Source of the DNA: a virus
Direction: 5' to 3' (one strand)
DNA length: 64,000 bases
IMG/VR virus record: IMGVR_UViG_3300035703_000053
Span: 1-64,000 of that record
Below the pieces are notes generated by a model. The model saw only the letters and a list, made by a program, of their open reading frames with translations, was not told the DNA's origin and did not search any database. The position numbers and the translations under genes were made by a program. This document shows, piece by piece, positions 12,967-63,973 of the stretch; position 1 is the stretch's first letter, and every line of letters begins with the position of its first letter.

Positions 12967-13398
12967 ATGTCATACAGAATACAGAGGAAAAAGAAAACAA
13001 AAACAATTGTATTACCGCACAATCAAATCTTTAAAATGCGCTTAATCCCTTGGATTCGCACCGAAAACGGTTGTGTATGGTTGGCTAGCCTTGCAGTTGC
13101 AAAATCTAAACGACAACTAAATGATTGGCTATACAAGCGCCCCAAGAAATCTACGGTGCGGCTAAGCGCGTCTTTGACAGGTCAACATGGTCCAGGGATC
13201 CAAGCAATTGGAATCCGACAACTTCGACAGTGGCTAGAAGATATTCCAGCCGGAGATTCTATTTGTATGCGTTGCGAGTCAGCACTTCCTGACAAACAGT
13301 TTTCTGTGTGGAAAAAATGGTTTCAACGTCACGAAGACCCCCGTTGGGAAATATGTGAAGAAAATAAATCTTTTTTCTTTTACAAATCAAGACTGTAG
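12967..13398 (+). CDS. Hypothetical protein
   Basis: 143-aa ORF. Confidence 0.55.
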   Translation: MSYRIQRKKKTKTIVLPHNQIFKMRLIPWIRTENGCVWLASLAVAKSKRQLNDWLYKRPKKSTVRLSASLTGQHGPGIQAIGIRQLRQWLEDIPAGDSICMRCESALPDKQFSVWKKWFQRHEDPRWEICEENKSFFFYKSRL

Positions 13399-50520: not shown

Positions 50521-53500
50521 TTAACGACGCAAAGCAGAACGCATTAATTGTTGAATCATCCCTTCAGATGGCGCTTGATAAGGCCGAAGGGCATTTTGTC
50601 CCACTCCCTTGAGTTTAACACCTTGAATTGATGCGGGTCCTTCCATGCGCTCTGCTGCAGCTGAGATATAGTTGCCGATATGACGTGCAACGGCATCAGC
50701 ACGTGCTTGTTCTGGTGAAATTCCCTGAGGGATGGTAGCGTTACGGCGAGCGTAACCAGCCATTTCAGTACTCATAGGGGTTTTACGTTCTGTGGGCATC
50801 GGTGCTGGCGCTTGAAGAGGAGGGCTAGAAGGGCCTTGCTGGGGAGGAGGAGTGGCCGAAGTGGGCCCAGGTTGCATGCCACGTTTGTATGCTGCTTGTG
50901 CCATCAAGCGATTACCCGCTTCTTGTAATTGAGACCCTGTTACACCATAACGTGAAATTGTTTGTGATTCAGATAAAGTTCCAACACCTGCTGGGATTGC
51001 ACCCATTCCTCCTCCAAGTTGTAATCCACCCCTGGACACACGGCCACCAGGTGTGAGGTTTGCAGTTAATGCAAATTGATTAAGTTGTTCCAATTGAGAG
51101 CCGGAACGGGGTTCTAAATTAACGCGTAACTGTTGATTTGGATATTGATAGTCACCTGTATTGACGCGAGAAGCGGGACCCATTGCTGCTGCAGCAGCTC
51201 CTGTGTACGGATTTTGAGTACGTGCAAAAGAACCGGGAGACTTAACAGGAAAACCAACCGGAGGCGTTTCAAGATAAGGACGCGACCCAACAGAGCCTGG
51301 CTCGTTTACAGCAGGCCTTCCCGCACCAGGCTGAAGACGTTGTGGCGCCATCTCATTACGTTCAGCAAAAAATGTAAGCGGGCCTTCATATGTTTCTGTA
51401 TCAACTTCTTGTGCGGAAACTCCACCCGCGCCGCTCACCTTTGTTTTACCTGGTAATGGAACCGCTTCCATGTTGATATATTCTGGGTCAACAATAGGCG
51501 TTTCACGGATTTGACCTGTTTTAAAAGTTTTGCGATTTACAAGGGGGCGACCTTGTTCGTTAACTTTTGCCGGTTTTACATAAATGTTTGTTTCTTTTAA
51601 CCCAGGTTGAATGTTGTTAATAAAGTCAAAAGCTGCAGAAGATAAATATCTTTTTTCATTTTGCTGAAGAACAGGAAGTGTTATTTGTTTAGACGTTTTT
51701 AAATAGTTATCTAAACTTTGAATCAAATATGTTTGGCGTTCCAAGGCGGAACCACCACCTTGTGCCGACCACATTTCTGCGGCATTGTTTAAGACTCCGT
51801 TTAGTTCATTCCTGTTTAAAGAAATGTCACGAAGATTGGGATCAGCGCCGACACGACCTCGTAACGGTTGTTCGCCAGCAACTTTAGTTTTTGCTTGATT
51901 TACATACCAATTACCTTTTTCGTCTTGAATGAGACGTTCTTGGGCTGTCATGTATTTAGTTACAGGTTGAGTTGTGATTTCAGAGGAGGGTTCGGAGGTT
52001 GCTGGTTGATAACGACCCAGCAGTTTACCTCCTGAGGTAGGGTCATAGCTTGGATCATCAACGGTGATTGAACCTTGATAGGAACCTAAAGAACGCACTC
52101 GTCCTGTTTTTGTATCAACAATACGAATTGGTTTACCTGCAATATTGGTACGTGTTTCTTTGTTGCGTGTACCAGTGCCAGTTAAATAAGCTCTTCCGGT
52201 TTGTGGATCAAAAGTCCAACCAGCTGCCGGATCGCCTTCTAAAGTTTCACGCGCCGGAAGTACACGGTCAATTTCTCGTTCTTGGCGCATGGATCCAGGT
52301 AACGCACCACTGGACTCTGATATTTGTCCAGGAACTGTTGTTGTGCCGCTTTTTGTTCTTTCTTGGAACCCTTTAGTTAAAACAAATCCGCCAGGACCTT
52401 CTACATCTCCGTAATCAGCTGCATTTGCTTCGTAGTCTGTACCACGGCCACGATTAAGGTTTAAATCTTCTAAGTCAGCAGTAGTATCAATTTCAAATTG
52501 ACCGGTAGTTGGGTTATAAGCATATACATCACTACCAAACTCACCAACAATTCCCTCGCCTGCATTGCGTTCGGTCATGCCGCCGCCTTCGGCCATTACC
52601 TCGTAATCTAAATTCCTACCTACACGTCCACCACGAACAGCAAGCGTTGTACCAAGTAGGTCTTTAACGTTTTTAGTAGGAACAGTAGGGTCAAGTAAAG
52701 CAGCAACATCGAGTTGAGTTAATGGCTCCATAGAACCAGGGCGGTAGTCGCTAGCTGAAGCTGAGATACGATGGAAAATTTCTTCTTGCGTTAAGCCATG
52801 ACTTGGACCCATTACTTGTAAAGCCCTTGCGTTTTTAGGTGCTTTACTCCTTTGAGTTGCGAGTGCCCAGGCAGCGGCCTTTTGTGCCGCAGCCTCAGCT
52901 GAAATAGCTTCGGCTTGTTGGCTAAAAGTTTTAAACCCGCTGATTTTTCTTTGTTCTGCGCCAGGGGATTGAGCAAAATTTTCAATTTGATCGGTTGGTA
53001 ACCCATCTGGTAATTGAGAGGCAACTTGATTAATTGCTGTACCAGGTTCGTAGCCACTCATTTGAGAGGGCTGAGCCTCTTGCATCATTAAATGTTGTTT
53101 TTCAGCGACGTCGTCTTCAAGTGTTTCAATTTGAGACATGTCATAATCTTCATTACGTTGAAGTTGTGTTTTAATTCGACCAGTAACTTGGTCTTCCCCG
53201 GATTCAACTGCATTTGCAAGTTGGTCACGTGTTTGGGCTAATAAGTTGTTTTGGATTTCCGTAAGATCAGCAAATGATCCAGGTTGGTTTGCACGTTTAG
53301 GTAGTTTTGTTGCTTGGCCTTGAGGAATTTCTGCTAAGGAGCCAGTAGATTCAACGTATGCGCGTGGGCTAAAGCCTTCGGCTGGTTGCCTGGATTGAAT
53401 GCGAGGAGCAGGAGGTGGGGTAGATGGCCTCACTACAGGCAGACCAGCTGATTTGGTAGGTGCGGGCGCTTGGGGAATAGGCTCTGCTGCTGCACGCCTC

Positions 53501-53808
53501 ACTGCAGCACCACTGAGGTCAACAGTGGCTGGTTTTACGGCAGAGGCTGCAGCTTGAGCAGGGGGAGTACCGCGTAAAAAACGAGTGGCGCCATACGCAC
53601 CAGCCCCTAAGCCAGCTAAAGCAGCTCCTACGCCCAGAGCTTGGGCCAAATTAAAACCTTGGTTTTCCTCTTGGGACGGAGATTTGAGTTGATTACGACG
53701 AAATGCCAGGACCTCAGGGGCCATTTGAGCCTGTTCTTCCGGATCACGGGGGATTGGTGCTCCAGTGGCGCGGCTATATGCGTAGAAATCGGCCTGAGAT
53801 AACGCCAT
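50521..53808 (-). CDS. Large low-complexity putative internal virion protein (1095 aa)
   Basis: Long ORF with N-terminal hydrophobic helix. Confidence 0.7.
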   Translation of the reverse strand: MALSQADFYAYSRATGAPIPRDPEEQAQMAPEVLAFRRNQLKSPSQEENQGFNLAQALGVGAALAGLGAGAYGATRFLRGTPPAQAAASAVKPATVDLSGAAVRRAAAEPIPQAPAPTKSAGLPVVRPSTPPPAPRIQSRQPAEGFSPRAYVESTGSLAEIPQGQATKLPKRANQPGSFADLTEIQNNLLAQTRDQLANAVESGEDQVTGRIKTQLQRNEDYDMSQIETLEDDVAEKQHLMMQEAQPSQMSGYEPGTAINQVASQLPDGLPTDQIENFAQSPGAEQRKISGFKTFSQQAEAISAEAAAQKAAAWALATQRSKAPKNARALQVMGPSHGLTQEEIFHRISASASDYRPGSMEPLTQLDVAALLDPTVPTKNVKDLLGTTLAVRGGRVGRNLDYEVMAEGGGMTERNAGEGIVGEFGSDVYAYNPTTGQFEIDTTADLEDLNLNRGRGTDYEANAADYGDVEGPGGFVLTKGFQERTKSGTTTVPGQISESSGALPGSMRQEREIDRVLPARETLEGDPAAGWTFDPQTGRAYLTGTGTRNKETRTNIAGKPIRIVDTKTGRVRSLGSYQGSITVDDPSYDPTSGGKLLGRYQPATSEPSSEITTQPVTKYMTAQERLIQDEKGNWYVNQAKTKVAGEQPLRGRVGADPNLRDISLNRNELNGVLNNAAEMWSAQGGGSALERQTYLIQSLDNYLKTSKQITLPVLQQNEKRYLSSAAFDFINNIQPGLKETNIYVKPAKVNEQGRPLVNRKTFKTGQIRETPIVDPEYINMEAVPLPGKTKVSGAGGVSAQEVDTETYEGPLTFFAERNEMAPQRLQPGAGRPAVNEPGSVGSRPYLETPPVGFPVKSPGSFARTQNPYTGAAAAAMGPASRVNTGDYQYPNQQLRVNLEPRSGSQLEQLNQFALTANLTPGGRVSRGGLQLGGGMGAIPAGVGTLSESQTISRYGVTGSQLQEAGNRLMAQAAYKRGMQPGPTSATPPPQQGPSSPPLQAPAPMPTERKTPMSTEMAGYARRNATIPQGISPEQARADAVARHIGNYISAAAERMEGPASIQGVKLKGVGQNALRPYQAPSEGMIQQLMRSALRR

Positions 53809-54265: not shown

Positions 54266-54398
54266 ATTACCTATTTGTAGTTAGGGCGGCCCCTATAGGG
54301 CCCAAATAGGATTAAAAATTACCTGACGCTTCTCCAACCAGCTAACCGAAGTGGAATGTGGGAAGAAAAAAAAGAATAGGTGAGTGGTTGAATATTGT

Positions 54399-54428
54399 AC
54401 GGGGGCTGCGCATCCGTTAATAACGCAG
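54399..54428 (+). ncRNA. Family P pseudoknot, copy 1
   Basis: ACGGG-GG-CUGCG-CA-UCCGU-UAAUAA-CGCAG; 22 nt before ATG 54451. Confidence 0.55.
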
Positions 54429-54450
54429 AGTTCTACCACAGGTTAGTTCA

Positions 54451-54687
54451 ATGACTGAGCGTGTGAAGCGTTTTGAGAGGGCAGCGAGCATGTTGGTTGC
54501 TGGCTGTAAGGTTAGCGTGTTGGTAAGTGAGTTACCGCAGGGTAACGTGCAAGCATGGCTAGCTGAATTGAAAGGTTACGTAATGTTTGGTCACACTGAT
54601 CCAGGGGATGAGTGGATTTATAAAGTTTACGTTACTGTGAAGAACGGTCGAGCAGTAGCGCAGGCGAAAGTAGTGTACGTTAATTGA
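54451..54687 (+). CDS. Early hypothetical protein
   Basis: 78-aa ORF, first of the plus-strand array. Confidence 0.55.
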   Translation: MTERVKRFERAASMLVAGCKVSVLVSELPQGNVQAWLAELKGYVMFGHTDPGDEWIYKVYVTVKNGRAVAQAKVVYVN

Positions 54688-54820
54688 GGATAAGTTGGTT
54701 TAATCCGACATTATCTGATAAGTAATTGTACTTACTTGTCAATTGTCAGCGTTTCCTGACACGACTTTTCGGCTACCCGGCGCGAGGCTTGCGGGAAAGA
54801 CCGTGTGACAGCTGGTAGTA

Positions 54821-54848
54821 ACGGGGGCTGCGCATCCGTACAACGCAG
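54821..54848 (+). ncRNA. Family P pseudoknot, copy 2
   Basis: ACGGG-GG-CUGCG-CA-UCCGU-ACAA-CGCAG; 23 nt before ATG 54872. Confidence 0.55.
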
Positions 54849-54871
54849 AACATTCCATCGCATTCAACGCA

Positions 54872-55048
54872 ATGATTTATTCGGTATGCATTAAGAGTTC
54901 GTTGTCGTATCAAGATTTCTTGTTTGCCAAAACATTGTATAGCTCAGTAGAGAAAGAGTTTTCTACTGAGCAACAAGCTCAACAATATATCCAATCTTTT
55001 GAAGATTGGGAGCGTAACTATTTACATATAGAAGTGTTTCCGTTCTAA
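54872..55048 (+). CDS. Early hypothetical protein (58 aa)
   Basis: MIYSVCIKSSLSYQDFLFAK...LHIEVFPF*, translated by eye. Confidence 0.5.
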   Translation: MIYSVCIKSSLSYQDFLFAKTLYSSVEKEFSTEQQAQQYIQSFEDWERNYLHIEVFPF

Positions 55049-55056
55049 GTTTTAAC

Positions 55057-55122
55057 GCCTGATGGTGCAGGAAGGGTTCGACTCCCTTCCCAGGCATTGC
55101 CCCCAGCGGAGATGGGCACCGC
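55057..55122 (+). ncRNA. tRNA-like element + pseudoknot, copy A
   Basis: GCCUG/CAGGC (5 bp) + GGAAGGG/CCCUUCC (7 bp), T-loop UUCGACU, discriminator A; then GCCC/GGGC with GCGG/CCGC pseudoknot. Confidence 0.7.
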
Positions 55123-55138
55123 ACAACAGGAGTTTCCT

Positions 55139-55234
55139 GTGGACTACACACCAGTCGGTCAGGTTATTGCACCTTACGTTTCACTGGTTGCAATATTCAT
55201 TGCTGCCTTTGTAATAGGTTACGTAACCGACTGA
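55139..55234 (+). CDS. Small TM peptide (31 aa)
   Basis: AGGAG RBS, GTG start; DYTPVGQVIAPYVSLVAIFIAAFVIGYVTD*; stop lies inside element B. Confidence 0.5.
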   Translation: MDYTPVGQVIAPYVSLVAIFIAAFVIGYVTD

Positions 55235-55302
55235 TCCGTATAAGCGGGTGACCAGGTGCAAACCCTGGTCCAGTTATTGCCCCCAGCGGAGATGGGCACC
55301 GC
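55229..55302 (+). ncRNA. tRNA-like element + pseudoknot, copy B
   Basis: GACUG/CAGUU + GACCAGG/CCUGGUC, loop UGCAAAC, side hairpin CCG-UAUAAG-CGG; same pseudoknot as copy A. Confidence 0.7.
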
Positions 55303-55319
55303 ACAATCCACTGCAAAGC

Positions 55320-55535
55320 ATGTACATCATCTTTGTTAATGGCGAACAGCATAGCTGCTATGGCTCTAACGAATACGTTGAGGCCATAGAAGAAGCTGCT
55401 CAGCTGGACCACATGTACAACTCACCTGAGTTGAACGGTGGCGTCCAGGGCGCCACAGCGGTCGAGATTCTGACTGTATCAGGCAGGATACTGTCTGATG
55501 CAGAGCTTGATGCTCGTGCAGCTATGGCTGACTAA
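55320..55535 (+). CDS. Early hypothetical protein
   Basis: MYIIFVNGEQHSCYG...; start just after element B. Confidence 0.6.
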   Translation: MYIIFVNGEQHSCYGSNEYVEAIEEAAQLDHMYNSPELNGGVQGATAVEILTVSGRILSDAELDARAAMAD

Positions 55536-55609
55536 CTGATCCGTACACACGGACTGGGAGGTGTGAGCCCTCCCTCAGTTATTGCCCGACCGTAGGGATG
55601 GGCTCCTAC
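55534..55609 (+). ncRNA. tRNA-like element + pseudoknot, copy C
   Basis: AACUG/CAGUU + (U)GGGAGG/CCUCCC(U), loop UGUGAGC; GCCC/GGGC with GUAGG/CCUAC pseudoknot (compensatory to A/B). Confidence 0.7.
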
Positions 55610-55613
55610 ACAC

Positions 55614-55910
55614 ATGGAGTTATCCATGGATTTGACTACAGGTTGGCAGCAACATCCCAACGTGCCTGGTGGTTACCACCTGGTTTACGTTGATGATCTG
55701 GTCGGTGACTTATCCATTGTTACTGGACCGAGAGGTTCAGGGCTAATGGCATCTAACGACCCAGGTCAGGAACCTACTTATGAAGTGTGGTTTCCAGGGA
55801 TGGCTGATCCAACCGGTCACCTAACACTTGATGAGATCAAAGGGATCATCAAGTACATGCGTCAACGTGAGCAGGAGCGTATGAACTACTGCTACAACGA
55901 AGACAACTGA
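55614..55910 (+). CDS. Early hypothetical protein (start 55614 or 55626)
   Basis: 98-aa ORF; stop TGA inside element D. Confidence 0.6.
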   Translation: MELSMDLTTGWQQHPNVPGGYHLVYVDDLVGDLSIVTGPRGSGLMASNDPGQEPTYEVWFPGMADPTGHLTLDEIKGIIKYMRQREQERMNYCYNEDN

Positions 55911-55973
55911 TCCGTATAAGCGGGAGGCAGGGTGCAAACCCCTGCCCAGTTATTGCCAACCACTGAGGTTGGC
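55905..55973 (+). ncRNA. tRNA-like element + hairpin, copy D
   Basis: AACUG/CAGUU + GGCAGGG/CCCUGCC, loop UGCAAAC; then GCCAACC/GGUUGGC hairpin. Confidence 0.7.
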
Positions 55974-55984
55974 TTGCAAACACA

Positions 55985-56158
55985 ATGGGCATTCGCAAAA
56001 CTTTGGCCAATGCACTTAACTCGACAGCAGCAATGCTGGAGAGTGACACATCTAAAGAGTACATCAGCGCCAAGCTGAGTGAGTACCGTATCCGTGCGGC
56101 AGCAATCATGATGCCAAAGGATATGGCATTCATCATTACTCCTAAGACAGACATTTGA
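55985..56158 (+). CDS. Early hypothetical protein (57 aa)
   Basis: MGIRKTLANALNSTAAMLES...PKTDI*, translated by eye. Confidence 0.55.
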   Translation: MGIRKTLANALNSTAAMLESDTSKEYISAKLSEYRIRAAAIMMPKDMAFIITPKTDI

Positions 56159-56189
56159 TCTCAACAGTCAACTTAATTCAATTCAGCTT

Positions 56190-56417
56190 ATGTTTATCTA
56201 TCAACCAAAGGATGCACTTGATCGTGTCGTATGGTATGGAGGTGAATCTACTCAGCTCCACTATGAGCAGGAAGTAGATGGATGGGACGGCAATCCTGAT
56301 TGGATTGAACGTTCAGTTCGTACTCTTGGTGGTGGTATACCAGCGGGAGTATCTGAACTACAAGCCGAGCTTGTGGATTATTACAACTACTGTCAGTGCG
56401 CAGTTAACTACGATTGA
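56190..56417 (+). CDS. Early hypothetical protein
   Basis: 75-aa acidic ORF. Confidence 0.6.
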   Translation: MFIYQPKDALDRVVWYGGESTQLHYEQEVDGWDGNPDWIERSVRTLGGGIPAGVSELQAELVDYYNYCQCAVNYD

Positions 56418-56418
56418 C

Positions 56419-56476
56419 TCCTGTAATTAACCCTTTGCTTTGGCAGAGGGTTTCCTACAGGATTCAACAATCCTGT
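56419..56476 (+). ncRNA. Family R long hairpin with alternative fold, copy 1
   Basis: UCCUGUA/UACAGGA, 3x3 loop AUU/UCC, AACCCUUUGC/GCAGAGGGUU; downstream UCCUGU. Confidence 0.65.
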
Positions 56477-56501
56477 CACTCAACTCAACTAGGACTCAAC
56501 A

Positions 56502-56741
56502 ATGACTCCTGCATACGTTGAACGGCTACTTACACAAGATGCTCGACTGCTTGCCAGGAGAGATTCCCCTGCCATTGACCAAGATCTTGAGCAGCAGCGT
56601 CAAGCTGCACTCGAAATCTTTTTCAAATGGCAGGATGATGCCTGTCAATTTGAAGACGTTATACCGTTCTGTGTTGTGCTCCAGCGCAAAGTAAATCTCA
56701 ATCGAGATTTGCTACGTTGGGAACGCCAGAACGCAGACTGA
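56502..56741 (+). CDS. Early hypothetical protein
   Basis: 79-aa ORF. Confidence 0.6.
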   Translation: MTPAYVERLLTQDARLLARRDSPAIDQDLEQQRQAALEIFFKWQDDACQFEDVIPFCVVLQRKVNLNRDLLRWERQNAD

Positions 56742-56742
56742 C

Positions 56743-56813
56743 TTCTGTACTTAACCTTCCGTTGATATGAATTCGTATCGGCGGTAGGTTTTCTACAGGA
56801 CTCAACATCCTGT
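56743..56813 (+). ncRNA. Family R long hairpin with alternative fold, copy 2
   Basis: UUCUGUA/UACAGGA, loop CUU/UUC, AACCU/AGGUU plus extended stem; downstream UCCUGU. Confidence 0.65.
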
Positions 56814-56856
56814 CACCAGTACATACGTACTACCAATCCAATTCAACACAACGGTC

Positions 56857-57276
56857 ATGTTTAGCAACACCATTATCGGTCGCGTTGTTTACATGGAGCC
56901 TGCCGTGCATGAAGGTAGGGAATTCCTGGCTATCAAGCTGGCAGTATCCGATATCTCTGGCAACGAGATCCGTATTAAATTCAACAACTCGAACGGGTTG
57001 TTTACTGCGTACAAGAATGGCACACTCGTTATTGGTCACCAGCTAATCCTTACTCAGTTCGACGTTCGTCTTAATAGCATTCGTACGCATTACCTCAAAG
57101 ATGGCCTGCTTCATCAGCTGAGGTATCCGGAGATTGCACTGACGAAGGTCAGAGCTTTTATGGGTTCAGCTCCAAGGCAGAAGGCAGAAGTGCCTCATGC
57201 CTACACCGATAACCAACAGGTGGAAGAGCTGACACCATACGGTGGCGAACCAACGCTAGAGACTGTACCGTTCTGA
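56857..57276 (+). CDS. Divergent SSB-like OB-fold protein
   Basis: TIIGRV......GREFL...LAV OB-fold pattern; acidic tail ending ETVPF. Confidence 0.5.
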   Translation: MFSNTIIGRVVYMEPAVHEGREFLAIKLAVSDISGNEIRIKFNNSNGLFTAYKNGTLVIGHQLILTQFDVRLNSIRTHYLKDGLLHQLRYPEIALTKVRAFMGSAPRQKAEVPHAYTDNQQVEELTPYGGEPTLETVPF

Positions 57277-57277
57277 A

Positions 57278-57345
57278 GTCTGCACTTAACCCTTCTGTCG
57301 AGAGACAGTGGGTTTTCTGCAGACATCTCACCGCAGGTGTCTGTA
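57278..57345 (+). ncRNA. Family R long hairpin with alternative fold, copy 3
   Basis: GUCUGCA/UGCAGAC, loop CUU/UUC, AACCC/GGGUU, CUGUC-GAGA-GACAG; downstream AGGUGUCUGUA. Confidence 0.65.
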
Positions 57346-57364
57346 CTATCCATCAGCTCAACTT

Positions 57365-57568
57365 ATGAAACATGTAATCAAGCTCAAGCCTAAACACTAT
57401 GTTCACCTCGATTCTTACGGTGAGTCTCATGAGACTCGCGGTAGTGAGGTGATTGTCCTGGCCTTGGGTATACTCATCAGTGCACTCACCGTAGGTGCAT
57501 TACTTGGCACTGATATTACTCAACCTACTCAACAGAACCATGGCAATTCACATCGCACTGATCGTTGA
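57365..57568 (+). CDS. Early membrane protein
   Basis: VIVLALGILISALTVGALLG TM segment. Confidence 0.55.
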   Translation: MKHVIKLKPKHYVHLDSYGESHETRGSEVIVLALGILISALTVGALLGTDITQPTQQNHGNSHRTDR

Positions 57569-57767
57569 TGCTACTGGCCGCTATGCCCATGTTTGGGGAG
57601 AAGCTTCAAGTTGGGATGACTTCATTGACCAACTTGAAGAACTAGGCGCAGAAGTAATTGAAGAACAAACTTCTGATTGGGAAGGTTATACCAAGGAAGA
57701 GATAGATGAAGATTGTATTTCAATTGGTAAGTTATTAATTGATACAGACTTTGTACCTTATGAATAG
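57540..57767 (+). CDS. Early acidic hypothetical protein
   Basis: MAIHIALIVDATGRY... Confidence 0.6.
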   Translation: MAIHIALIVDATGRYAHVWGEASSWDDFIDQLEELGAEVIEEQTSDWEGYTKEEIDEDCISIGKLLIDTDFVPYE

Positions 57768-57807
57768 GCCACCCATAACTGGAGTGGAATGACTCCAGAT
57801 TTGAGTA

Positions 57808-57856
57808 GGCTCCCCCTGGCCCCCGGCCAACAGCCAGCACCAGGGATATGGCTGTT
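57808..57856. repeat. Family Q C-tract + hairpin element, copy 1
   Basis: GGCTCCCCCTGGCCCCCGGC then AACAGCCA-(GCACCAGGGATA)-TGGCTGTT. Confidence 0.5.
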
Positions 57857-57922
57857 TAGTGTTTGACTTTACTTTATTAAGTATTTGAGTATTTGAAGTT
57901 TATTCAATTTACTTATATGGAT

Positions 57923-57949
57923 GGACCTGAGCATGTCCTTAAACTGCTC
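57923..57949 (+). ncRNA. Family K 27-nt pseudoknot, copy 1
   Basis: GGAC-CU-GAGCA-U-GUCC-UUAAAC-UGCUC. Confidence 0.7.
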
Positions 57950-57972
57950 AGCAAACTTATCTATTACACACC

Positions 57973-58245
57973 ATGACTACACTTGAAGATTTTGCACAAG
58001 AAAACGCTATATATCCTTGGCTTGCCAATGATTGTATGGCGGATAATGCTTTAGATCAGAACTACAACGCTGACTTGCTTGATTCCATGGCTGACATGGC
58101 CTACGAACAAGAGCAAGCCATGCGTGAATCAAATGAAGATGACTGGACCCTTGTAGATCGAACCGATGGAATTGTATCGGTAGATCTACTTAATGGCTAT
58201 GTAAACTTATTTGAAGACATTATCCATGATGACGAAACACACTGA
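57973..58245 (+). CDS. Early acidic hypothetical protein
   Basis: 90-aa D/E-rich ORF. Confidence 0.6.
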   Translation: MTTLEDFAQENAIYPWLANDCMADNALDQNYNADLLDSMADMAYEQEQAMRESNEDDWTLVDRTDGIVSVDLLNGYVNLFEDIIHDDETH

Positions 58246-58252
58246 TCCCACA

Positions 58253-58624
58253 ATGGATGACATAATTATTGTCATCCTTGCAATCATTTCAATCATCATT
58301 ACTGAACTAATCTCATGCTTCACCCCATCACTCAAGAAATCGCTGCAACCTTCGGGTACCAACCCTTCGACTCAGAAGAAGGTCAGCAGCAGTACCAAGC
58401 AGAGTGCGACTTCCAGAACGCACCAAAGGGAGCAATCCCCTGCACTGGTAACGTCTACAGAAACAAGCAGGGAGTCCTGCGTTGTTACTGGATTCCAGCC
58501 GGAGGTAACTACTCGGCCCAAGACAAGGAGGAACTCGAAGGCTGGTACGACATCCCAAGCAACGAAGATATCGAGGAGTGGGTGTTCGACAGCATCTGTT
58601 TCACACCAGCAGATGATGAAGTAG
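58253..58624 (+). CDS. Possible TM-anchored S/T-rich protein overlapping the next gene
   Basis: MDDIIIVILAIISIIITELISC then S/T/K-rich tail. Confidence 0.35.
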   Translation: MDDIIIVILAIISIIITELISCFTPSLKKSLQPSGTNPSTQKKVSSSTKQSATSRTHQREQSPALVTSTETSRESCVVTGFQPEVTTRPKTRRNSKAGTTSQATKISRSGCSTASVSHQQMMK

Positions 58625-58671
58625 AACCAGACCACCCTGATAGCTGGCTCTCAATCCTTGGATTGATTTAA
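58315..58671 (+). CDS. Early hypothetical protein
   Basis: EEWVFDSIC.TP.DDEVEPDHPDSWLSILGLI C-terminal motif seen in phage proteins. Confidence 0.65.
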   Translation: MLHPITQEIAATFGYQPFDSEEGQQQYQAECDFQNAPKGAIPCTGNVYRNKQGVLRCYWIPAGGNYSAQDKEELEGWYDIPSNEDIEEWVFDSICFTPADDEVEPDHPDSWLSILGLI

Positions 58672-58761
58672 CCTATGTCATATAACGCAAGTGTAATGAT
58701 GACATATGCCATTCGCGAATAGCGAATATGTAAGTACCAGGGGTATTGCCAGATAACCACT

Positions 58762-58807
58762 GGCCTACCCCCTGCACCCCCGGCAGAAGTACCAGGAGAT
58801 AACTTCT
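58762..58807. repeat. Family Q C-tract + hairpin element, copy 2
   Basis: GGCCTACCCCCTGCACCCCCGGC then AGAAGT-(ACCAGGAGATA)-ACTTCT. Confidence 0.5.
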
Positions 58808-58840
58808 ATTAGTAAATAACCTAACCAATGCATTAAGCCA

Positions 58841-59173
58841 ATGGCACAAACCAAATCATCTCAACGTAAACAACAACCATCTCCTGATTACCCTCAAGGT
58901 AAGCACACAGTTACATTCACAGACATAGATGAAGAAGATTGGTGGTTAATCACAAACTTATTCAAAGGACGTATTGATTACTTTAATCAACGTTTACAAG
59001 AAATTCAACATTCTAAAGATCCGGATTTAATACGGAGAAACACAGAGTGGCTAGAAGAAACAATAGAACGTTTGGAGATTAGACTACATCAGTTCGAAGA
59101 TCAGATCAGTCCTACATACTTTAAGCGTAAGCGTGCAGAACATGCCGCTCGCATAAAGCAACCAAACATTTAA
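58841..59173 (+). CDS. Early hypothetical protein
   Basis: 110-aa ORF. Confidence 0.6.
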   Translation: MAQTKSSQRKQQPSPDYPQGKHTVTFTDIDEEDWWLITNLFKGRIDYFNQRLQEIQHSKDPDLIRRNTEWLEETIERLEIRLHQFEDQISPTYFKRKRAEHAARIKQPNI

Positions 59174-59244
59174 ACACTGGGCATTCATGTATATACATGT
59201 TGTAAGTCCCAGGGGGTTTAGAAATTACTCAACACACTCTTGTC

Positions 59245-59571
59245 ATGACAAACAAAGTCTTGAAGTTTGAACCAACCATCTATAAGAAATCAGATGGTAC
59301 AGAGGTTGTATTCCAAGTCAATGATTCCACACGCATTGACATGATCATTACAGAACTACAAGCTATCTATGCACGTGAACAGAAACGTGACTTGATGGCA
59401 CTGCACCTTCCATATGAAGCACCTGAGCTGCTGCTGGAAGCCATTGGTCTGCTTGAGAAAGCAACTGAGTGGGGTGAACCAACAGACGATGATCTATGTG
59501 GTGAGCCACCAGTGACCATGGCTGAGATGCACTCAGCTGCATGGAAGGAACATCAAGAAGCACACCGGTAA
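59245..59571 (+). CDS. Early hypothetical protein
   Basis: 108-aa ORF (GEPPVTMAEMH..AW). Confidence 0.6.
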   Translation: MTNKVLKFEPTIYKKSDGTEVVFQVNDSTRIDMIITELQAIYAREQKRDLMALHLPYEAPELLLEAIGLLEKATEWGEPTDDDLCGEPPVTMAEMHSAAWKEHQEAHR

Positions 59572-59681
59572 CCATTCACATACCGCAAGGTTAAGAACTG
59601 GTTAACACAGTGGTCATGGCTTGACACCACCCGGTAGACTGGCCGTGACCACACACTCAACCTCTACAAAACCTACATTAA

Positions 59682-59885
59682 ATGTCCGACAAAATCAGCA
59701 TTCCAAACTCAATCAACTCCAACAATCTTGCTGCAATGCAACTTGTAGCCAAGATGAAAGAGTCTGCAGACAAGCATGGTATTGGCTTCATTGGGGGATT
59801 TATATCTCCCGATGGAGAGAAATTTATTATGACGAATATGGATGATGAAGATTCCCAGGCCTTGCTGCCTGAGAATCTTAAGTGA
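59682..59885 (+). CDS. Early hypothetical protein
   Basis: 67-aa ORF. Confidence 0.6.
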   Translation: MSDKISIPNSINSNNLAAMQLVAKMKESADKHGIGFIGGFISPDGEKFIMTNMDDEDSQALLPENLK

Positions 59886-59901
59886 ATCTTAAATTACACA
59901 C

Positions 59902-60207
59902 TTGAAAACAATGGATGATCGTGAAGCAATGATTGATGAAATCATTGATAAATTCAATTTTGAGAAAGTGCACATTGCTATGACTGCACTTGATTGGAAA
60001 TGGAAACCAACAGTTAGTAACACACCAGCTGTTCCATCAATCTCCAGGCTTAAGGAGATGGCTCGTCACTTGTTAAGTGAAGCTATCAACCATAAGGTTG
60101 TAGGTAGCGGAGGTTTCGAAGCTAAGTACATACCTAAGGTTGATAATGATCCAGAGTATTTCCATTTGAAATTCATTCTTTGCGAAGCTGATTCCTACGA
60201 TGACTAA
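59902..60207 (+). CDS. Early hypothetical protein
   Basis: IDEIIDKFNFEKVH..M..LDWKW...GGF; widespread phage family by recollection. Confidence 0.65.
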   Translation: MKTMDDREAMIDEIIDKFNFEKVHIAMTALDWKWKPTVSNTPAVPSISRLKEMARHLLSEAINHKVVGSGGFEAKYIPKVDNDPEYFHLKFILCEADSYDD

Positions 60208-60523
60208 TCAAGAACACAACGGCAACCGTACGTGTATCTCGATGACTGACCTCTCCCCCGCCGCTGCTGCTGTCAGGGCCGCTTACTCGGAAGGCTGCTA
60301 TTTGCTGATGCCGCACCGCAAGCATCAACTGGATGGCATGGCTTGCCCTGGGCTAACCTCCGCCATCCGCGCTATTGCGGATCAGGTGGTGCCAGAGGAA
60401 CCGGAGCCAGATCAATCAGCTATGACGTTTTCAGATTGGAATCTCAAAACTGAAAGCTGGGATGCCCGCATGGCTACTCGCTCCGCGATCCTCGCCATTG
60501 CCTACGAGCTGGAGGCTGTTTGA
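60200..60523 (+). CDS. Hypothetical protein (GC-richer module)
   Basis: MTDLSPAAAAV...AIRAIADQVVPE...ILAIAYELE. Confidence 0.6.
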   Translation: MTNQEHNGNRTCISMTDLSPAAAAVRAAYSEGCYLLMPHRKHQLDGMACPGLTSAIRAIADQVVPEEPEPDQSAMTFSDWNLKTESWDARMATRSAILAIAYELEAV

Positions 60524-60723
60524 TGATTAAACCTAAATCACCCATCAACTTCGATAAAACTATTGCAGGATTTAATATCACGGAACATGGTATCAAATCA
60601 TTTACTAAGTCAATTAAACTTGGTCCGTTACAAGTAACATTTAACGCCAGAGAATCTGGTGTACGTGCATCTGTATCATTACCTGGTACAGGACTATCAC
60701 GTCGTAACATCAAGTTACTTTGA
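60523..60723 (+). CDS. DUF4236-like small protein
   Basis: FTKSIKLGPLQVTFN...GVRASVSLPGTGLS. Confidence 0.6.
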   Translation: MIKPKSPINFDKTIAGFNITEHGIKSFTKSIKLGPLQVTFNARESGVRASVSLPGTGLSRRNIKLL

Positions 60724-60729
60724 TTGACT

Positions 60730-60756
60730 CGTCCTGGGCATGACGTTAAACTGCCT
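60730..60756 (+). ncRNA. Family K 27-nt pseudoknot, copy 2
   Basis: CGUC-CU-GGGCA-U-GACG-UUAAAC-UGCCU. Confidence 0.7.
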
Positions 60757-60778
60757 ATGTTCACTCAACTTAAATCAC

Positions 60779-60955
60779 ATGGAACCAGGACTTACTTTCT
60801 TTGACAGGCTGTCAATTGCGAATTGCGCCAAGCAACGAGCAGAACAGAACTGTTGCGACAGACGTCGTTTTACCGACGAGTTTTTCACTGCGCGCATGTG
60901 GGCTCGCTATCGGTGCTACATCACACGTGAGATTCAATTCGTGGAGCCTGATTGA
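60779..60955 (+). CDS. Early hypothetical protein
   Basis: MEPGLTFFDRLSIANC... Confidence 0.5.
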   Translation: MEPGLTFFDRLSIANCAKQRAEQNCCDRRRFTDEFFTARMWARYRCYITREIQFVEPD

Positions 60956-61203
60956 TGTCTGTACTTGCAGTCGAACACACTACTATTGATGGTAACGATG
61001 TTACTGTTACAGCAGTTGTTGATGAGATGCGTTTGCTTTATCGAGCAACACATCTTGATCCTGAAGAGTATGCTCCTGCATTGTGCCAGGTATATTTCAC
61101 AGTGGATGAGGGAGAACAAATCCCTACTGACGAAGATGGCTTCTGTCAGTATCTTGATTCACTCAATCTTGACTGGCAACTACTCCCTATAGAGAACGAC
61201 TGA
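60955..61203 (+). CDS. Early acidic hypothetical protein
   Basis: TGATG-coupled ORF. Confidence 0.6.
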   Translation: MSVLAVEHTTIDGNDVTVTAVVDEMRLLYRATHLDPEEYAPALCQVYFTVDEGEQIPTDEDGFCQYLDSLNLDWQLLPIEND

Positions 61204-61433
61204 TGATTGGATTATCAATTGAATTCAAACGCTGGTACATTGTTATCAGGGGCCCCAAGGGTAGAATTTATTTGGCCACTGGATTTGCCAGAAGCATGCC
61301 TGTGTTTATGCCAACAGGTACACTGACTCTTGGCGACCATATAGATGACAGTCACTCTGCAATCCTTGCAGATGAATGGAGAGAAGATGAAACGGATGAG
61401 GAACTGTTACAACAGTTAAAGGACATCCGTTGA
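61203..61433 (+). CDS. Early hypothetical protein
   Basis: TGATG-coupled ORF. Confidence 0.55.
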   Translation: MIGLSIEFKRWYIVIRGPKGRIYLATGFARSMPVFMPTGTLTLGDHIDDSHSAILADEWREDETDEELLQQLKDIR

Positions 61434-61438
61434 TCACA

Positions 61439-61465
61439 CGTCCTGGACATGACGTTAAACTGTCC
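61439..61465 (+). ncRNA. Family K 27-nt pseudoknot, copy 3
   Basis: CGUC-CU-GGACA-U-GACG-UUAAAC-UGUCC. Confidence 0.7.
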
Positions 61466-61495
61466 GCTACACTACGAACTTACTTCGAACTCACC

Positions 61496-63175
61496 ATGGA
61501 ATTTCAACTGCCATCTAACCTCAAGACTGAGCTAATCCCTTATGATGCCACGCTTAAGCAGCTGGCTAAACTTACCAAACAACCTGGTACTAAAGCAGCT
61601 AAGCCTAAGTACCCACTTGGTAATGTTAACGATTTAATTCCTGAAGACATTGTTGATCCTGCTGTATTGCAACAAGTTGTTGATCGCATCAACAATGTTT
61701 ATGCACAAGATCGTTGCCATACGTTTAGACCAACAGACGAAGGTGTTAAATCAACAGCTATCTTGTATCACTACGAACAACTGTGGATAGCTGCGTGGCT
61801 ACCACCTGAGGGTGAAGAGAATGTATATGTATATGGATATGCTTATGCATTTAAAGATACAGAATCTGCACGTAAATTAAATCGTGACTTGATTGCTAAT
61901 AATCAAATTGATACATTTAACAAGGTTAGTTACGGTCGCAGTCAATTCTTTGTACGTAAACGTTACGTCACTGTAGATGATATTAAGAATGGTGATGACA
62001 TACGTAATTGGAATCATAAATATATGTCATATGGTAAAGGTATAAACATTCGTCCTACTGTTATTTACTTTGAGAACGCATTGCGTCAAACAATTCCGCA
62101 ATGGCAGGACTCACGTTATATTTTTGAGCGTCTTAAAGATTCATCTATTCTTAATGTGTTGTTTGAAGGTAGGGGACAAGTTGATTCATACTTTAAAGAT
62201 AAGCGTAATAGCTGGTTGCCTAGTGCCAGTGCAGTCATTGATCTGCTTGACAACAATATTATTAACTTATCTCCAGCACCTGCTAATACTATTCGTCACA
62301 TTGTAGATAAACCATTTTTCCGTAAGTGGATTCAACAACAGTGTGATGAAGTGCTAGCTATTTATAACAACAAAGATAATAAATCACGCAAGGCTATTCA
62401 ACGTCCGTGGAACATAATTACTTTATTGTTTAATCGTCTTGCATATGTCAATAGGATTTGGCCTGACTGCCCTATTGATTACTACCAAAATAATATTGAT
62501 ACACTACTGACAATAGACTTTGGTTATTTTTCCAATAGGGCAGTTGATTATTGGCTGAATACATACATGCCAGTTGCTTCATTCTTTAATATTCTTAACA
62601 AGTTTAAAGAACAGAATACTAGTAACGGTTATACAAACAATGAGACAGGTTTGACAATTGCCACTCTATATAATTGGCGTGACACATATCAAATGCTTGG
62701 TCAGATTCTTAGCGCTGACAAAACTATTGAACCACCACGTCGTTGGCGTCTCAATGAATTCCATGATCATGTACAAGCAGAAGCATGGAAAATCCAACAT
62801 CCTAATAGTTCATTGCCCCAGGATTTATTCCCTGCTCCAGTACGTATTACATACAACGAACAGACCTGGTCATTCTTTCAGCCTATTGATACACATCAAC
62901 TATCTAGCTGGGGTCAGGCTGTACGTAACTGCGTTGGTAATGCATCTAGCTATGCAGAAGGTGTACGCAAGAAGAAACACTTTATTGTTCTGTGTATCAT
63001 TGATGGCAAACCAACATTTACTGTGCAGCTCACCGTTGATAACGGCATGATGTCTGTCACGCAGATTGTTGGTACATCTAATGCCAGGCTTAGCTCTGAT
63101 CAGCAAGCTGAATACACAGAAGCCTTCCGCCTTGCCTTGCAAGCACGGGAATCTGAGCTAGGATCAAAGGGTTGA
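61496..63175 (+). CDS. PcfJ-like domain protein
   Basis: WRDTYQM...EFHD...QP....L..WG..VRNCVG..SYA..V...TVQL...QI.G..N C-terminal PcfJ pattern. Confidence 0.7.
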   Translation: MEFQLPSNLKTELIPYDATLKQLAKLTKQPGTKAAKPKYPLGNVNDLIPEDIVDPAVLQQVVDRINNVYAQDRCHTFRPTDEGVKSTAILYHYEQLWIAAWLPPEGEENVYVYGYAYAFKDTESARKLNRDLIANNQIDTFNKVSYGRSQFFVRKRYVTVDDIKNGDDIRNWNHKYMSYGKGINIRPTVIYFENALRQTIPQWQDSRYIFERLKDSSILNVLFEGRGQVDSYFKDKRNSWLPSASAVIDLLDNNIINLSPAPANTIRHIVDKPFFRKWIQQQCDEVLAIYNNKDNKSRKAIQRPWNIITLLFNRLAYVNRIWPDCPIDYYQNNIDTLLTIDFGYFSNRAVDYWLNTYMPVASFFNILNKFKEQNTSNGYTNNETGLTIATLYNWRDTYQMLGQILSADKTIEPPRRWRLNEFHDHVQAEAWKIQHPNSSLPQDLFPAPVRITYNEQTWSFFQPIDTHQLSSWGQAVRNCVGNASSYAEGVRKKKHFIVLCIIDGKPTFTVQLTVDNGMMSVTQIVGTSNARLSSDQQAEYTEAFRLALQARESELGSKG

Positions 63176-63217
63176 AGCCAACAGCCAGCATCCTCGTCAC
63201 TGCTGGCTTTCATTCTT

Positions 63218-63469
63218 ATGTCAGGGTCCATTGCTCCAGGTGCAGACGATGATCAACAGCCACTATCAGTGGAGGATCAACGGCTGCTTGCAATGGCCCT
63301 GGCCAACCTTGGTCAATACATTCATGACAACTCACCACACTATGAGTTGATTGAAGATCCAAGGAACGATGATGACTATGACACCTGGGAGGTGGGTATG
63401 GAACCACTACCAGGTGATCATACTTGGCGGTCTAATTCCATAGACGTAAGTCCAAGTAACGGGGTGTGA
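63218..63469 (+). CDS. Acidic hypothetical protein; stop lies inside the tRNA
   Basis: 83-aa ORF ending at TGA 63467-63469. Confidence 0.5.
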   Translation: MSGSIAPGADDDQQPLSVEDQRLLAMALANLGQYIHDNSPHYELIEDPRNDDDYDTWEVGMEPLPGDHTWRSNSIDVSPSNGV

Positions 63470-63545
63470 TGAAATTAGAAACCATGACTGACTTAAAATC
63501 AGTTGGCCTTTGGCCTTGCAGGTGCAAGTCCTGTCACCCCGACCA
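63460..63545 (+). tRNA. trnL: tRNA-Leu (anticodon UAA), intronless, CCA encoded
   Basis: Acceptor CGGGGUG/CACCCCG + A-CCA; anticodon arm ACUGA-CUUAAAA-UCAGU; long variable arm GGCC-UUU-GGCC; T-arm GCAGG-UGCAAGU-CCUGU. Confidence 0.88.
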
Positions 63546-63947: not shown

Positions 63948-63973
63948 AGGCCCCGGTGCAAGCCGGGGTCTTT
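63948..63973 (+). terminator. GC hairpin, terminator-like, with UGCAAG loop
   Basis: AGGCCCCGG-TGCAAG-CCGGGGTCT followed by TTC. Confidence 0.45.

Follow-up and report, generated by a model that had tools for sequence, protein, structure and literature searches.

In the tRNA punctuation model of mitochondria, real tRNAs act as processing signals beside tRNA mimics, and in the MALAT1 transcript a tRNA-like element, mascRNA, is cut by tRNA-processing enzymes and defines the flanking RNA ends. In bacteriophage T7, the early mRNA carries RNase III sites in the form of bulged hairpins between the early genes of a polycistron. Pseudoknots can mimic the acceptor/T-arm helix, and RNase P cleavage of pseudoknot substrates such as the tRNA-like structure of turnip yellow mosaic virus has been reported. 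According to the available portions of two further reports, plant mitochondrial t-elements are proposed to be RNase Z and/or RNase P cleavage signals at mRNA ends (PMC1920247), and the PeSL elements of T4-type phages combine an early promoter with a terminator-like stem-loop (PMC4122927). Here we describe a set of small RNA structures at the gene junctions of IMG/VR virus record IMGVR_UViG_3300035703_000053, a relative of Synechococcus phage S-EIV1. The window that we analyzed is the first 64 kb (64,000 nucleotides, nt) of this record of 83,753 base pairs (bp). From about 54.4 kb on, every gene is on the plus strand, in an array of about 30 small open reading frames (ORFs), and four families of elements that we call P (a compact pseudoknot candidate, two copies), T (tRNA-like, four copies), R (long hairpins, three copies) and K (a 28-nt pseudoknot, three copies) sit at gene junctions, as does one real tRNA-Leu. 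A preliminary description, made from the sequence alone, had proposed these as a system that cuts one polycistron and caps the products, and all twelve of its elements were found in place, on the sense strand and between genes. Almost all of the small early genes have such a folded element before them, probably as a mark for cutting, protecting or translating the long message.

Given the way in which their pairing is maintained across copies, the elements are almost certainly conserved RNA structures of the sense strand. All 15 of the genome's copies of T, K, R and P are on the plus strand (15/15). Compensatory changes had been claimed for T, R and K, and we see them in copies from IMG/VR phage contigs, where T, K, R and the pseudoknot that follows T (C, below) all recur. 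Because G-U pairs far exceed A-C mismatches, folding is a property of the sense strand. In all of the counts that follow, the search patterns held some columns fixed, and related contigs are not independent events. The features of the window are collected in Table 1.

Table 1. Structured elements, tRNA and terminator-like hairpin of the window (MFE, minimum free energy; z, z-score; E, expectation value; S1 and S2, the two stems of a pseudoknot).
Feature	Position	Strand	Description
P1	54399..54428	+	CGG/CCG and CUGCG/CGCAG; 22 nt before ATG 54451
P2	54821..54848	+	second P copy; 23 nt before ATG 54872
T1	55057..55096	+	no D-like hairpin; 21.6 bits, E 9e-5; MFE -18.8, z -2.3
C1	55099..55122	+	H-type pseudoknot, GCCC/GGGC and GCGG/CCGC; 3 nt after T1
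T2	55229..55276	+	76.5 bits; z -4.1
C2	55279..55302	+	pseudoknot, stems identical to C1
T3	55534..55581	+	loop TGTGAGC; 43.4 bits; z -2.9
C3	55584..55609	+	second stem switched to GUAGG/CCUAC, compensatory
T4	55905..55952	+	76.9 bits; z -3.0
Simple hairpin	55955..55973	+	7 bp, GCCAACC/GGUUGGC; 3 nt after T4, replaces C; type frequent in relatives
R1	56419..56476	+	MFE -26.4, z -6.4; begins 1 nt past TGA
R2	56743..56813	+	like R1, longer apical stem; z -6.1
R3	57278..57345	+	like R1; z -4.5
K1	57923..57950	+	S1 4 bp, S2 6-7 bp, loop UUAAAC; 20 nt before ATG 57973
K2	60730..60757	+	pseudoknot; TTGACT directly upstream
K3	61439..61466	+	S2 GGACA/UGUCC; 27 nt before ATG of gene for 559 amino acids (aa)
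tRNA-Leu(UAA)	63460..63545	+	47.8 bits; encoded CCA; T-loop TGCAAGT
Terminator-like hairpin	63948..63971	+	7-nt loop TGCAAGC, then TTTCTCT

The T element is the top half of a tRNA, which is the part measured by RNase P, RNase Z and the CCA enzyme. It consists of a 5-bp acceptor-like stem, two unpaired nt, a 4-bp D-like hairpin with a tetraloop that ends in an invariant AA, two more nt, and a 7-bp stem that carries a 7-nt T-loop. The T-stem passes directly into the acceptor-like stem's 3' strand, creating a 12-bp stack that is followed by A-UU. MFE folds of the window copies concur with this three-helix layout (z -2.3 to -4.1). The shorter T1 retains the 5-bp acceptor-like stem and the 7-bp T-stem, with the canonical loop TTCGACT and then an unpaired A, and the same subtype is found at two other loci (L013 and L051).

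A degenerate (IUPAC) pattern taken from the window matched at least 119 IMG/VR stretches, and in the 114 distinct T cores among the matches listed the three-helix structure is 98.1% paired, with 10 of the 16 pairs changed on both sides. A covariance model built from T cores detected 181 copies at E <= 0.001 in 100 sources totaling 895 kb, and the pairing percentages and trailer counts given next are for the best 150 of these 181 copies, 118 of them distinct. In this set 98.4% of 1886 cells are paired and 13/16 pairs are changed on both sides, a value that no shuffle reached (0/500), while slid partners pair in only 34-51% of cases. Pairing is 95.1% in the acceptor-like 5 bp and 99.8% in the 7-bp T-stem, and at one acceptor pair we counted 33 G-U against a single A-C. 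Lower-scoring copies, which are free of the pattern constraint, show compensation in the small hairpin as well, from CCG/CGG to UCG/CGA, CUG/CAG or CAG/CUG. The T-loop is T-(G/T)-(C/T)-R-A-N-N in every variant seen, and the trailer is A (96/118), T (115/118), T (114/118) and then G or A (117/118), with no CCA. When the model was run on the whole genome with filters off, it found exactly four elements (55055-55099, 55227-55279, 55532-55584 and 55903-55955) with E from 9e-5 to 4e-24, and the next match had E 0.013. T has what tRNA-like processing elements are known by, namely a coaxial acceptor/T helix of about 12 bp, a 7-nt T-loop, an unpaired discriminator and a trailer lacking CCA; the tRNA-like reading given in the preliminary description is strong on account of the stacked helix, the loop pattern and the conserved A-UU. 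In a related locus, ARAGORN calls one T copy together with upstream sequence (13268-13362) a tRNA of undetermined identity, and the 3' half is therefore strongly tRNA-like.

T elements typically contain the stop codon of the gene before them. A TGA is present in the 5' strand of T in 134/136 contexts, and it closes an open frame of at least 40 codons in 89.7% of the 136, whereas the remaining two frames give 20.6% and 9.6%. In the window, the 5' strand of T2 holds the TGA (55232-55234) of a 31-aa ORF and that of T4 the TGA of the upstream ORF (end 55910); in T3 the TGA is out of frame, and the upstream ORF stops at a TAA (55533-55535). TGA readthrough or selenocysteine insertion was ruled out by eye, with in-frame stops following in several copies. 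An origin of T in host genomes was also considered and rejected: the pattern has 44 matches in 185,579 species genomes, which is chance level, and the two of these that exceed 40 bits with the T model are both on short contigs of metagenome-assembled genomes, with none cyanobacterial.

The tRNA-Leu, which is the only tRNA called by ARAGORN or Rfam in the window, is similarly placed. The TGA of the upstream 83-aa ORF (63467-63469) forms tRNA positions 8-10 and, because this stop is inside the tRNA, use of the tRNA would require a cut at this junction at least. Position 2 of its T-loop is G in place of the universal U, six copies in related contigs agree, and this unusual G is common to the tRNA-Leu and T. 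Further downstream, the terminator-like hairpin fits an intrinsic terminator well, and its loop follows the T-loop pattern of the T elements.

Three nt past the discriminator-like A of T there is either the pseudoknot C or a simple hairpin. Both stems of C covary among 57 distinct modules. GGAG follows C within 16 nt in 48/73 modules, versus words resembling a Shine-Dalgarno (SD) sequence in 4/81 other modules. In the window, C1 is followed by GGAG and, 6 nt later, by the GTG start of the 31-aa ORF (55139-55234). We noted that this ORF encodes a hydrophobic peptide with a C-terminal GYVTD that is kept in relatives, and that the mechanical ORF list has two overlapping ORFs there instead (55062-55214 and 55097-55234).

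The R elements are intercistronic hairpins. R1 has a 7-bp basal stem, a 3x3 internal loop, an upper stem, and downstream of the hairpin a second partner for the 3' arm. The folds of R1, R2 and R3 comprise 17, 23 and 17 bp, each with the 3x3 loop (z -4.5 to -6.4), and in R3 the basal stem and the second partner are both altered (GUCUGCA / UGCAGAC / GUCUG). We collected 61 distinct copies, in which pairing at the five basal positions not fixed by the pattern is 80-93% with G-U included, and 3/5 of these pairs come in several types. G-U outnumbers A-C by 12 to 1 in R. Within 30 nt, the 3' arm meets a second partner that matches it perfectly over 6 nt in 53/61 copies, compared with 73/1830 shuffles, and a TGA is located 1 nt upstream of R in 44/61. 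The inner hairpins of R2 and R3 were flagged as terminator-like, and their U-run pairs within the longer conserved fold.

The K family fits an H-type pseudoknot: S1 of 4 bp, a 1-nt loop, S2 of 6 bp, a 1-nt loop and UUAAAC. In 67 distinct copies it is 96.3% paired, versus 23-45% for slid controls, and 6/10 pairs are changed on both sides (2/4 in S1 and 4/6 in S2). A scan of IMG/VR with S2 left free returned 122 distinct new matches, 106 of which keep at least 5/6 S2 pairs. Over 151 cores we counted 107 G-U against 25 A-C and, given this excess and the covariation, K must fold in single-stranded form, with the sense polarity. The loop nucleotides C, U and UUAAAC are near invariant while the stems covary, and TAAACT is at least 90% conserved. 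The genome has six K copies; the three outside the window, at 67447, 71161 and 75700 of the genome, stand ahead of replication genes, and K1 follows a 205-nt non-coding stretch. Since the six copies have six different S2 sequences, each self-complementary, a sequence-specific operator is ruled out. K2 yields a sigma-70-like match, TTGACT-17-TAAACT, and across 79 copies the -35 position upstream of K has a match of at least 4/6 in 30%, versus 15% at control offsets, in columns that carry almost no information. K most often starts 5 nt past a stop codon (modal value), and it ends 17-30 nt before an ATG in 73/79 copies. A likeness of the K sequence GTTAAAC to integron attC sites was ruled out, as its G varies with the pairing partner.

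Outside of the S-EIV1 relatives, K is found in varied company. Of 84 newly fetched loci with a true K (29-57% G+C), half have no protein similarity to this genome. In a tblastn search of 426 genome ORFs against 212 K or P loci, 64 loci were matched, and beyond the S-EIV1-like group no protein goes along with the motifs in flanks of up to about 14 kb. K and P are not special to this array, and occur in phages that share no protein with this one in the fetched flanks. Several loci (L340, L273, L292, L298, L360, L363, L371 and L376) have K ahead of tRNA genes, for tRNA-Asn, -Arg, -Lys and -Ser, and in L340 the two alternate in a repeating K-tRNA-K-tRNA array.

P is likely a pseudoknot, and a less secure one than K on the evidence of its sequence variation. 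P1 and P2 have an identical 19-mer in common. P precedes genes for varied small proteins, at 21-23 nt from the ATG in most S-EIV1-like copies. A scan with the 5-nt stem left free gave 99 distinct matches, and the stems that have an exact complement in the tail are CUGCG (24), GUGCG (3), CCGCG (3), GCGCG (3) and UUGCG (2). The loci of these matches are 37-66% G+C, and 15/31 are unrelated to this genome by protein. The CGG/CCG stem has one compensatory change only, to CAG/CUG in S-EIV1 and one other contig, and the loop nucleotides GGG and CAU are near invariant. Of the two covarying helices that mark an H-type pseudoknot, K and C have both; in P, S2 covaries and S1 barely does.

P1 is at the head of the array, and the roughly 100 nt before it form a conserved A-tract region. 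We noted that this stretch (54290-54398) has an A run and a G/T-rich block, and it is common to most S-EIV1-like contigs. It may be the early promoter region, and no clear -35/-10 pair was found within it.

The placement of the elements between genes also agrees with what had been described. T, R and K have the stop codon inside them or within 1-5 nt, and such placement holds in relatives. The leaders between element and ATG, described as usually A/C-rich and often without an SD, are 5% G, and SD-like words are found in 2/76 K, 3/30 P and 3/27 R leaders. An additional idea, that the modules are recombination joints, fits the mosaic neighbors of T. Of the multi-member groups of genes upstream of T, 19/26 have at least two different downstream groups, and in the reverse direction 16/34 downstream groups have at least two different upstream groups, counts that are rough in that start-codon calls fell inside modules for about half of the rows.

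A match to an already characterized motif would have spoken against the proposal, and a cmscan of P, T, C, K and R against Rfam 15 gave none at the gathering score. Searches of 10 kb and of about 0.9 kb at E up to 10 likewise gave no match to these five, and the output was limited to tRNA and chance-level snoRNA and miRNA matches. We found no description of the elements in the literature on S-EIV1 (its genome paper not included), on cyanophage tRNA-like or pseudoknot RNAs, or on phage RNase P processing. The available portion of a 2023 catalogue lists 8,495 anonymous structured-RNA candidates from IMG/VR, with thousands of covarying phage motifs that include tRNA-like and gene-upstream ones, and T, K, P, R or C may be among its anonymous entries; none is named in that text (PMC10690425).

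The genome context is that of an S-EIV1-like cyanophage. The 787-aa virion protein is 80% identical to its S-EIV1 counterpart, which is the sole phage record that it matched. A megablast search of 50,697 phage records gave no close DNA relative for the array; in a distant blastn, S-EIV1 was the sole match, covering 13% of the query, and a search for relatives via the 559-aa protein found none. In S-EIV1 itself, the corresponding junctions carry P, two T, three K and an R-like element. Contigs of uncertain kind from two runs of one wastewater study contain 6% of the sampled sequence words, and match the array in nine short pieces that carry no information on RNA ends. Past the end of the window the small ORFs give way to ThyX, family A DNA polymerase and SSB, and the array is the early/middle region of the genome. 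PHROG and Pfam scans covered 18 distinct large proteins, two of them in both libraries, and recognized primase, DNA polymerase A, SSB, ThyX, terminase and structural proteins. With small ORFs outside the scan, neither an RNA polymerase nor an RNase partner was recognized among these 18, nor, with most small ORFs outside it, an integrase or recombinase. Because no RNA polymerase was recognized among the large proteins, our working assumption is that the host transcribes the array into long plus-strand RNAs. The array has 14 sigma-70-like sites compared with 21.2 +/- 5.0 in shuffles, which is no enrichment.

We also noted several features beside the main families. A 1095-aa ORF on the minus strand (50521-53808) diverges from the adjoining array; it has no PHROG or Pfam family, and its size recalls virion RNA polymerases. 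A family of hairpins of the form CCUGGGC ... GUAAGUCCCAGG, with a variable inner hairpin, is represented at a gene junction in the window (59179-59216) and at two gene junctions in S-EIV1 (locus L002, about 6263-6312 and 6962-7022). A C-rich motif, CCCCCUG..CCCCCGGC..CCAGG, is found in two long non-coding gaps of the array (57805-57845 and 58770-58800) and in S-EIV1 too (L002, about 7430-7500 and 7640-7690).

The model that we put forward, tentatively and with somewhat less than even confidence, is that host nucleases divide the polycistron and that the modules shield the new 5' ends. Its plausibility is greatest for T and the real tRNA, and lower for K and P. Each gene would be a cassette headed by a structured RNA module of the sense strand. 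The T elements would be miniature tRNAs and, with the tRNA-Leu, would serve as punctuation for host tRNA-processing endonucleases: RNase Z would cut just 3' of the discriminator-like A, RNase P possibly at the 5' side, and the upstream message would thereby gain a tRNA-like 3' end. The R elements would be hairpins of the RNase III type, and once these are cut or opened the 3' arm would re-pair with the downstream copy of the 5' arm. In this way C, K, P or the second hairpin of R would end up within 2-3 nt of a new 5' end, where a module about 20 nt upstream of the AUG would both shield that end and insulate an unstructured, G-poor ribosome landing site without an SD. Where T is absent, K and P would do the protecting or insulating, and modules common to unrelated genes could double as homology patches for cassette exchange.

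Several observations weigh against this model. T has three helices and no anticodon arm, and it was missed in the window by ARAGORN and by the Rfam tRNA model (E up to 10, even with a 931-nt slice). An RNase P cut 5' of T or of the tRNA-Leu would remove the upstream stop codon, which looks costly, and with 17-23 bp the R hairpins are at the low end for RNase III. P is near invariant in S-EIV1-like phages (28 distinct cores), and such near-invariance suggests recognition by a factor or ligand and not mere shielding. Sensing of the terminating ribosome, or simple compaction, explains the stop-proximal placement of T, R and K just as well. In other phages, K is located 0-9 nt upstream of tRNA genes in 10/222 copies, where a protective mRNA cap has no obvious use and is hard to square with the arrangement. 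In these cases the tRNA 5' end is 7-10 nt past TAAACT, as would be expected for a start downstream of a -10 box. Since K adjoins tRNA genes, a role purely as an mRNA cap or in translation does not suffice for it, and a reading as a transcription start stays alive.

Translation devices that act without cleavage could account for much of the layout, and we consider them possible though rather unlikely. Here the compact fold would serve as a standby or S1 platform and insulate a landing site without an SD, some 20 nt ahead of the AUG, and an element inside the footprint of the terminating ribosome may couple downstream initiation to upstream translation; R, whose 3' arm has two mutually exclusive conserved partners, would show this most clearly, through a switch between A:B and B:C pairing. 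The distances of K and P from the ATG, the G-poor leaders with hardly any SD-like word, and the stops inside T, 1 nt before R and most often 5 nt before K all fit such a role, as does the association of C with a different type of start, one with GGAG. In other phages, however, K also stands directly before tRNA genes and non-coding stretches, where translation is irrelevant, and an insulator needs none of the 12-bp stack, T-loop and A-UU of T. Transcription signals, as composites of terminator and promoter like PeSL, would give the families other roles: the -10-like TAAACT of K would start middle units, the inner hairpin and U-run of R would attenuate, and P would be promoter-proximal, for example as an antitermination RNA. 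The conservation of TAAACT and its distance from tRNA 5' ends are in favor, and in other phages K often comes after a hairpin or terminator-like stem. In this genome K stands ahead of replication genes (67.4, 71.2 and 75.7 kb) and after the 205-nt gap (57.9 kb), K2 has a sigma-70-like match, R2 and R3 have terminator-like inner hairpins, and P1 follows the A-tract region at the array start. We nevertheless regard transcription signals as distinctly unlikely. The -35 upstream of K is not conserved, the array has no enrichment of sigma-70-like sites, and the U-run of R is paired in the larger fold. The covariation of interleaved stems in K and its 107:25 ratio of G-U to A-C are not explained by a double-stranded promoter, and they mean that K must be transcribed or single-stranded.

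It is very improbable, in our view, that K and/or P are small self-acting RNAs, that is, a self-cleaving motif or a fold that blocks exonucleases. No host-specific factor would then be needed, which would explain the spread of K and P across unrelated phages, whose loci span 29-66% G+C with no detectable common protein; near-invariant loops with covarying stems, and the occurrence of K before ORFs, tRNAs and non-coding stretches, are also as expected of such RNAs. Neither matches a ribozyme family in Rfam, however, and all self-cleaving classes that we know of are larger than the 28-30 nt of K and P. A role at the level of DNA, with the modules as portable homology patches or recombinase sites for cassette swaps among co-infecting phages and folding as secondary, seems to us quite improbable, if somewhat less so than self-acting RNAs. 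The mosaic neighbors (19/26 and 16/34 groups, by rough count), the stop codon that T supplies to any preceding gene, and the presence of K and P in phages without protein similarity in the fetched flanks would suit exchange, for which the PeSL elements of T4-type phages, as described in the available portion of that report, offer a precedent (PMC4122927). Homology patches need identity, whereas the compensatory, strand-specific covariation shows selection on the fold, and among the 18 large proteins (with most small ORFs outside the scan) there is no integrase or recombinase. Exchange of this type is compatible with the other readings.

A broader reading combines T, K, P and the cassette joints into a modular RNA 'operating system' that runs the early genes, and we hold this to be doubtful. 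T would then be the first tRNA-mimic punctuation of bacterial-type mRNAs, and its overlap with the stop codon would link cutting, loss of the stop and translation. K and P would be new and very widespread phage pseudoknot classes that work by themselves or through a universal host machine, as natural counterparts of the synthetic RiboJ, defining and protecting RNA ends before ORFs, tRNAs and non-coding RNAs. The modules would also be joints for the movement of cassettes between unrelated phages.

The observation is real and richer than first described, and the mechanism of cutting and protection is a reasonable, testable model and not a result. If T is cut by tRNA-processing enzymes, bacterial phages share the punctuation logic of mitochondria with purpose-built mimics, and the expression of dozens of tiny genes without SD from long transcripts would be explained. 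K and P, being short, abundant and found in phages without a detectable common protein, are good candidates for new RNA families, as well as candidate compact parts for setting RNA ends or insulating translation starts. Modules in common between genes offer a concrete mechanism for gene shuffling in phage early regions. Given that cultured S-EIV1 carries T, K, P and an R-like element, the model is directly testable, in a phage for which the available portion of one report gives a latent period exceeding 7 days (PMC8790148).

By concept, what we describe is a variant of tRNA-type punctuation and phage intercistronic processing; by structure, T, K, P, R and C are new RNA families when set against Rfam 15. 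As far as the available portion of their description goes, plant mitochondrial t-elements are the nearest parallel to T, in that they are tRNA-like folds in polycistronic RNA at mRNA ends (PMC1920247). T differs in belonging to a phage of a bacterium, in being a reduced three-way junction without an anticodon arm, in overlapping the upstream stop, in preceding a dedicated pseudoknot, and in forming a conserved family of more than 100 copies. The mascRNA is eukaryotic, from a single locus, and a full cloverleaf, whereas T elements are tandem copies between short ORFs. Like the RNase III sites of T7, the R elements are bulged hairpins between genes, built from a basal stem, an internal loop and an upper stem; they differ in their 17-23 bp, in the conserved alternative partner of the 3' arm, and in beginning 1 nt past the stop. 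PeSL elements, in the part of their description available, are likewise short conserved intergenic modules that join unrelated genes in plastic early regions with apparent shuffling (PMC4122927). The modules here flank gene replacements or indels in the same manner (19/26 upstream groups, a rough count), and differ in being tRNA-like folds and pseudoknots under selection at the RNA level, with neither a sigma-70-type early promoter in the module nor a conserved -35/-10 pair. Finally, the leader of T4 gene 32, as presented in the available portion of the 2023 catalogue, likewise combines a compact H-type pseudoknot with an unstructured stretch downstream of it (PMC10690425). That pseudoknot serves a single autoregulated gene, whereas K, P and C head many unrelated genes.

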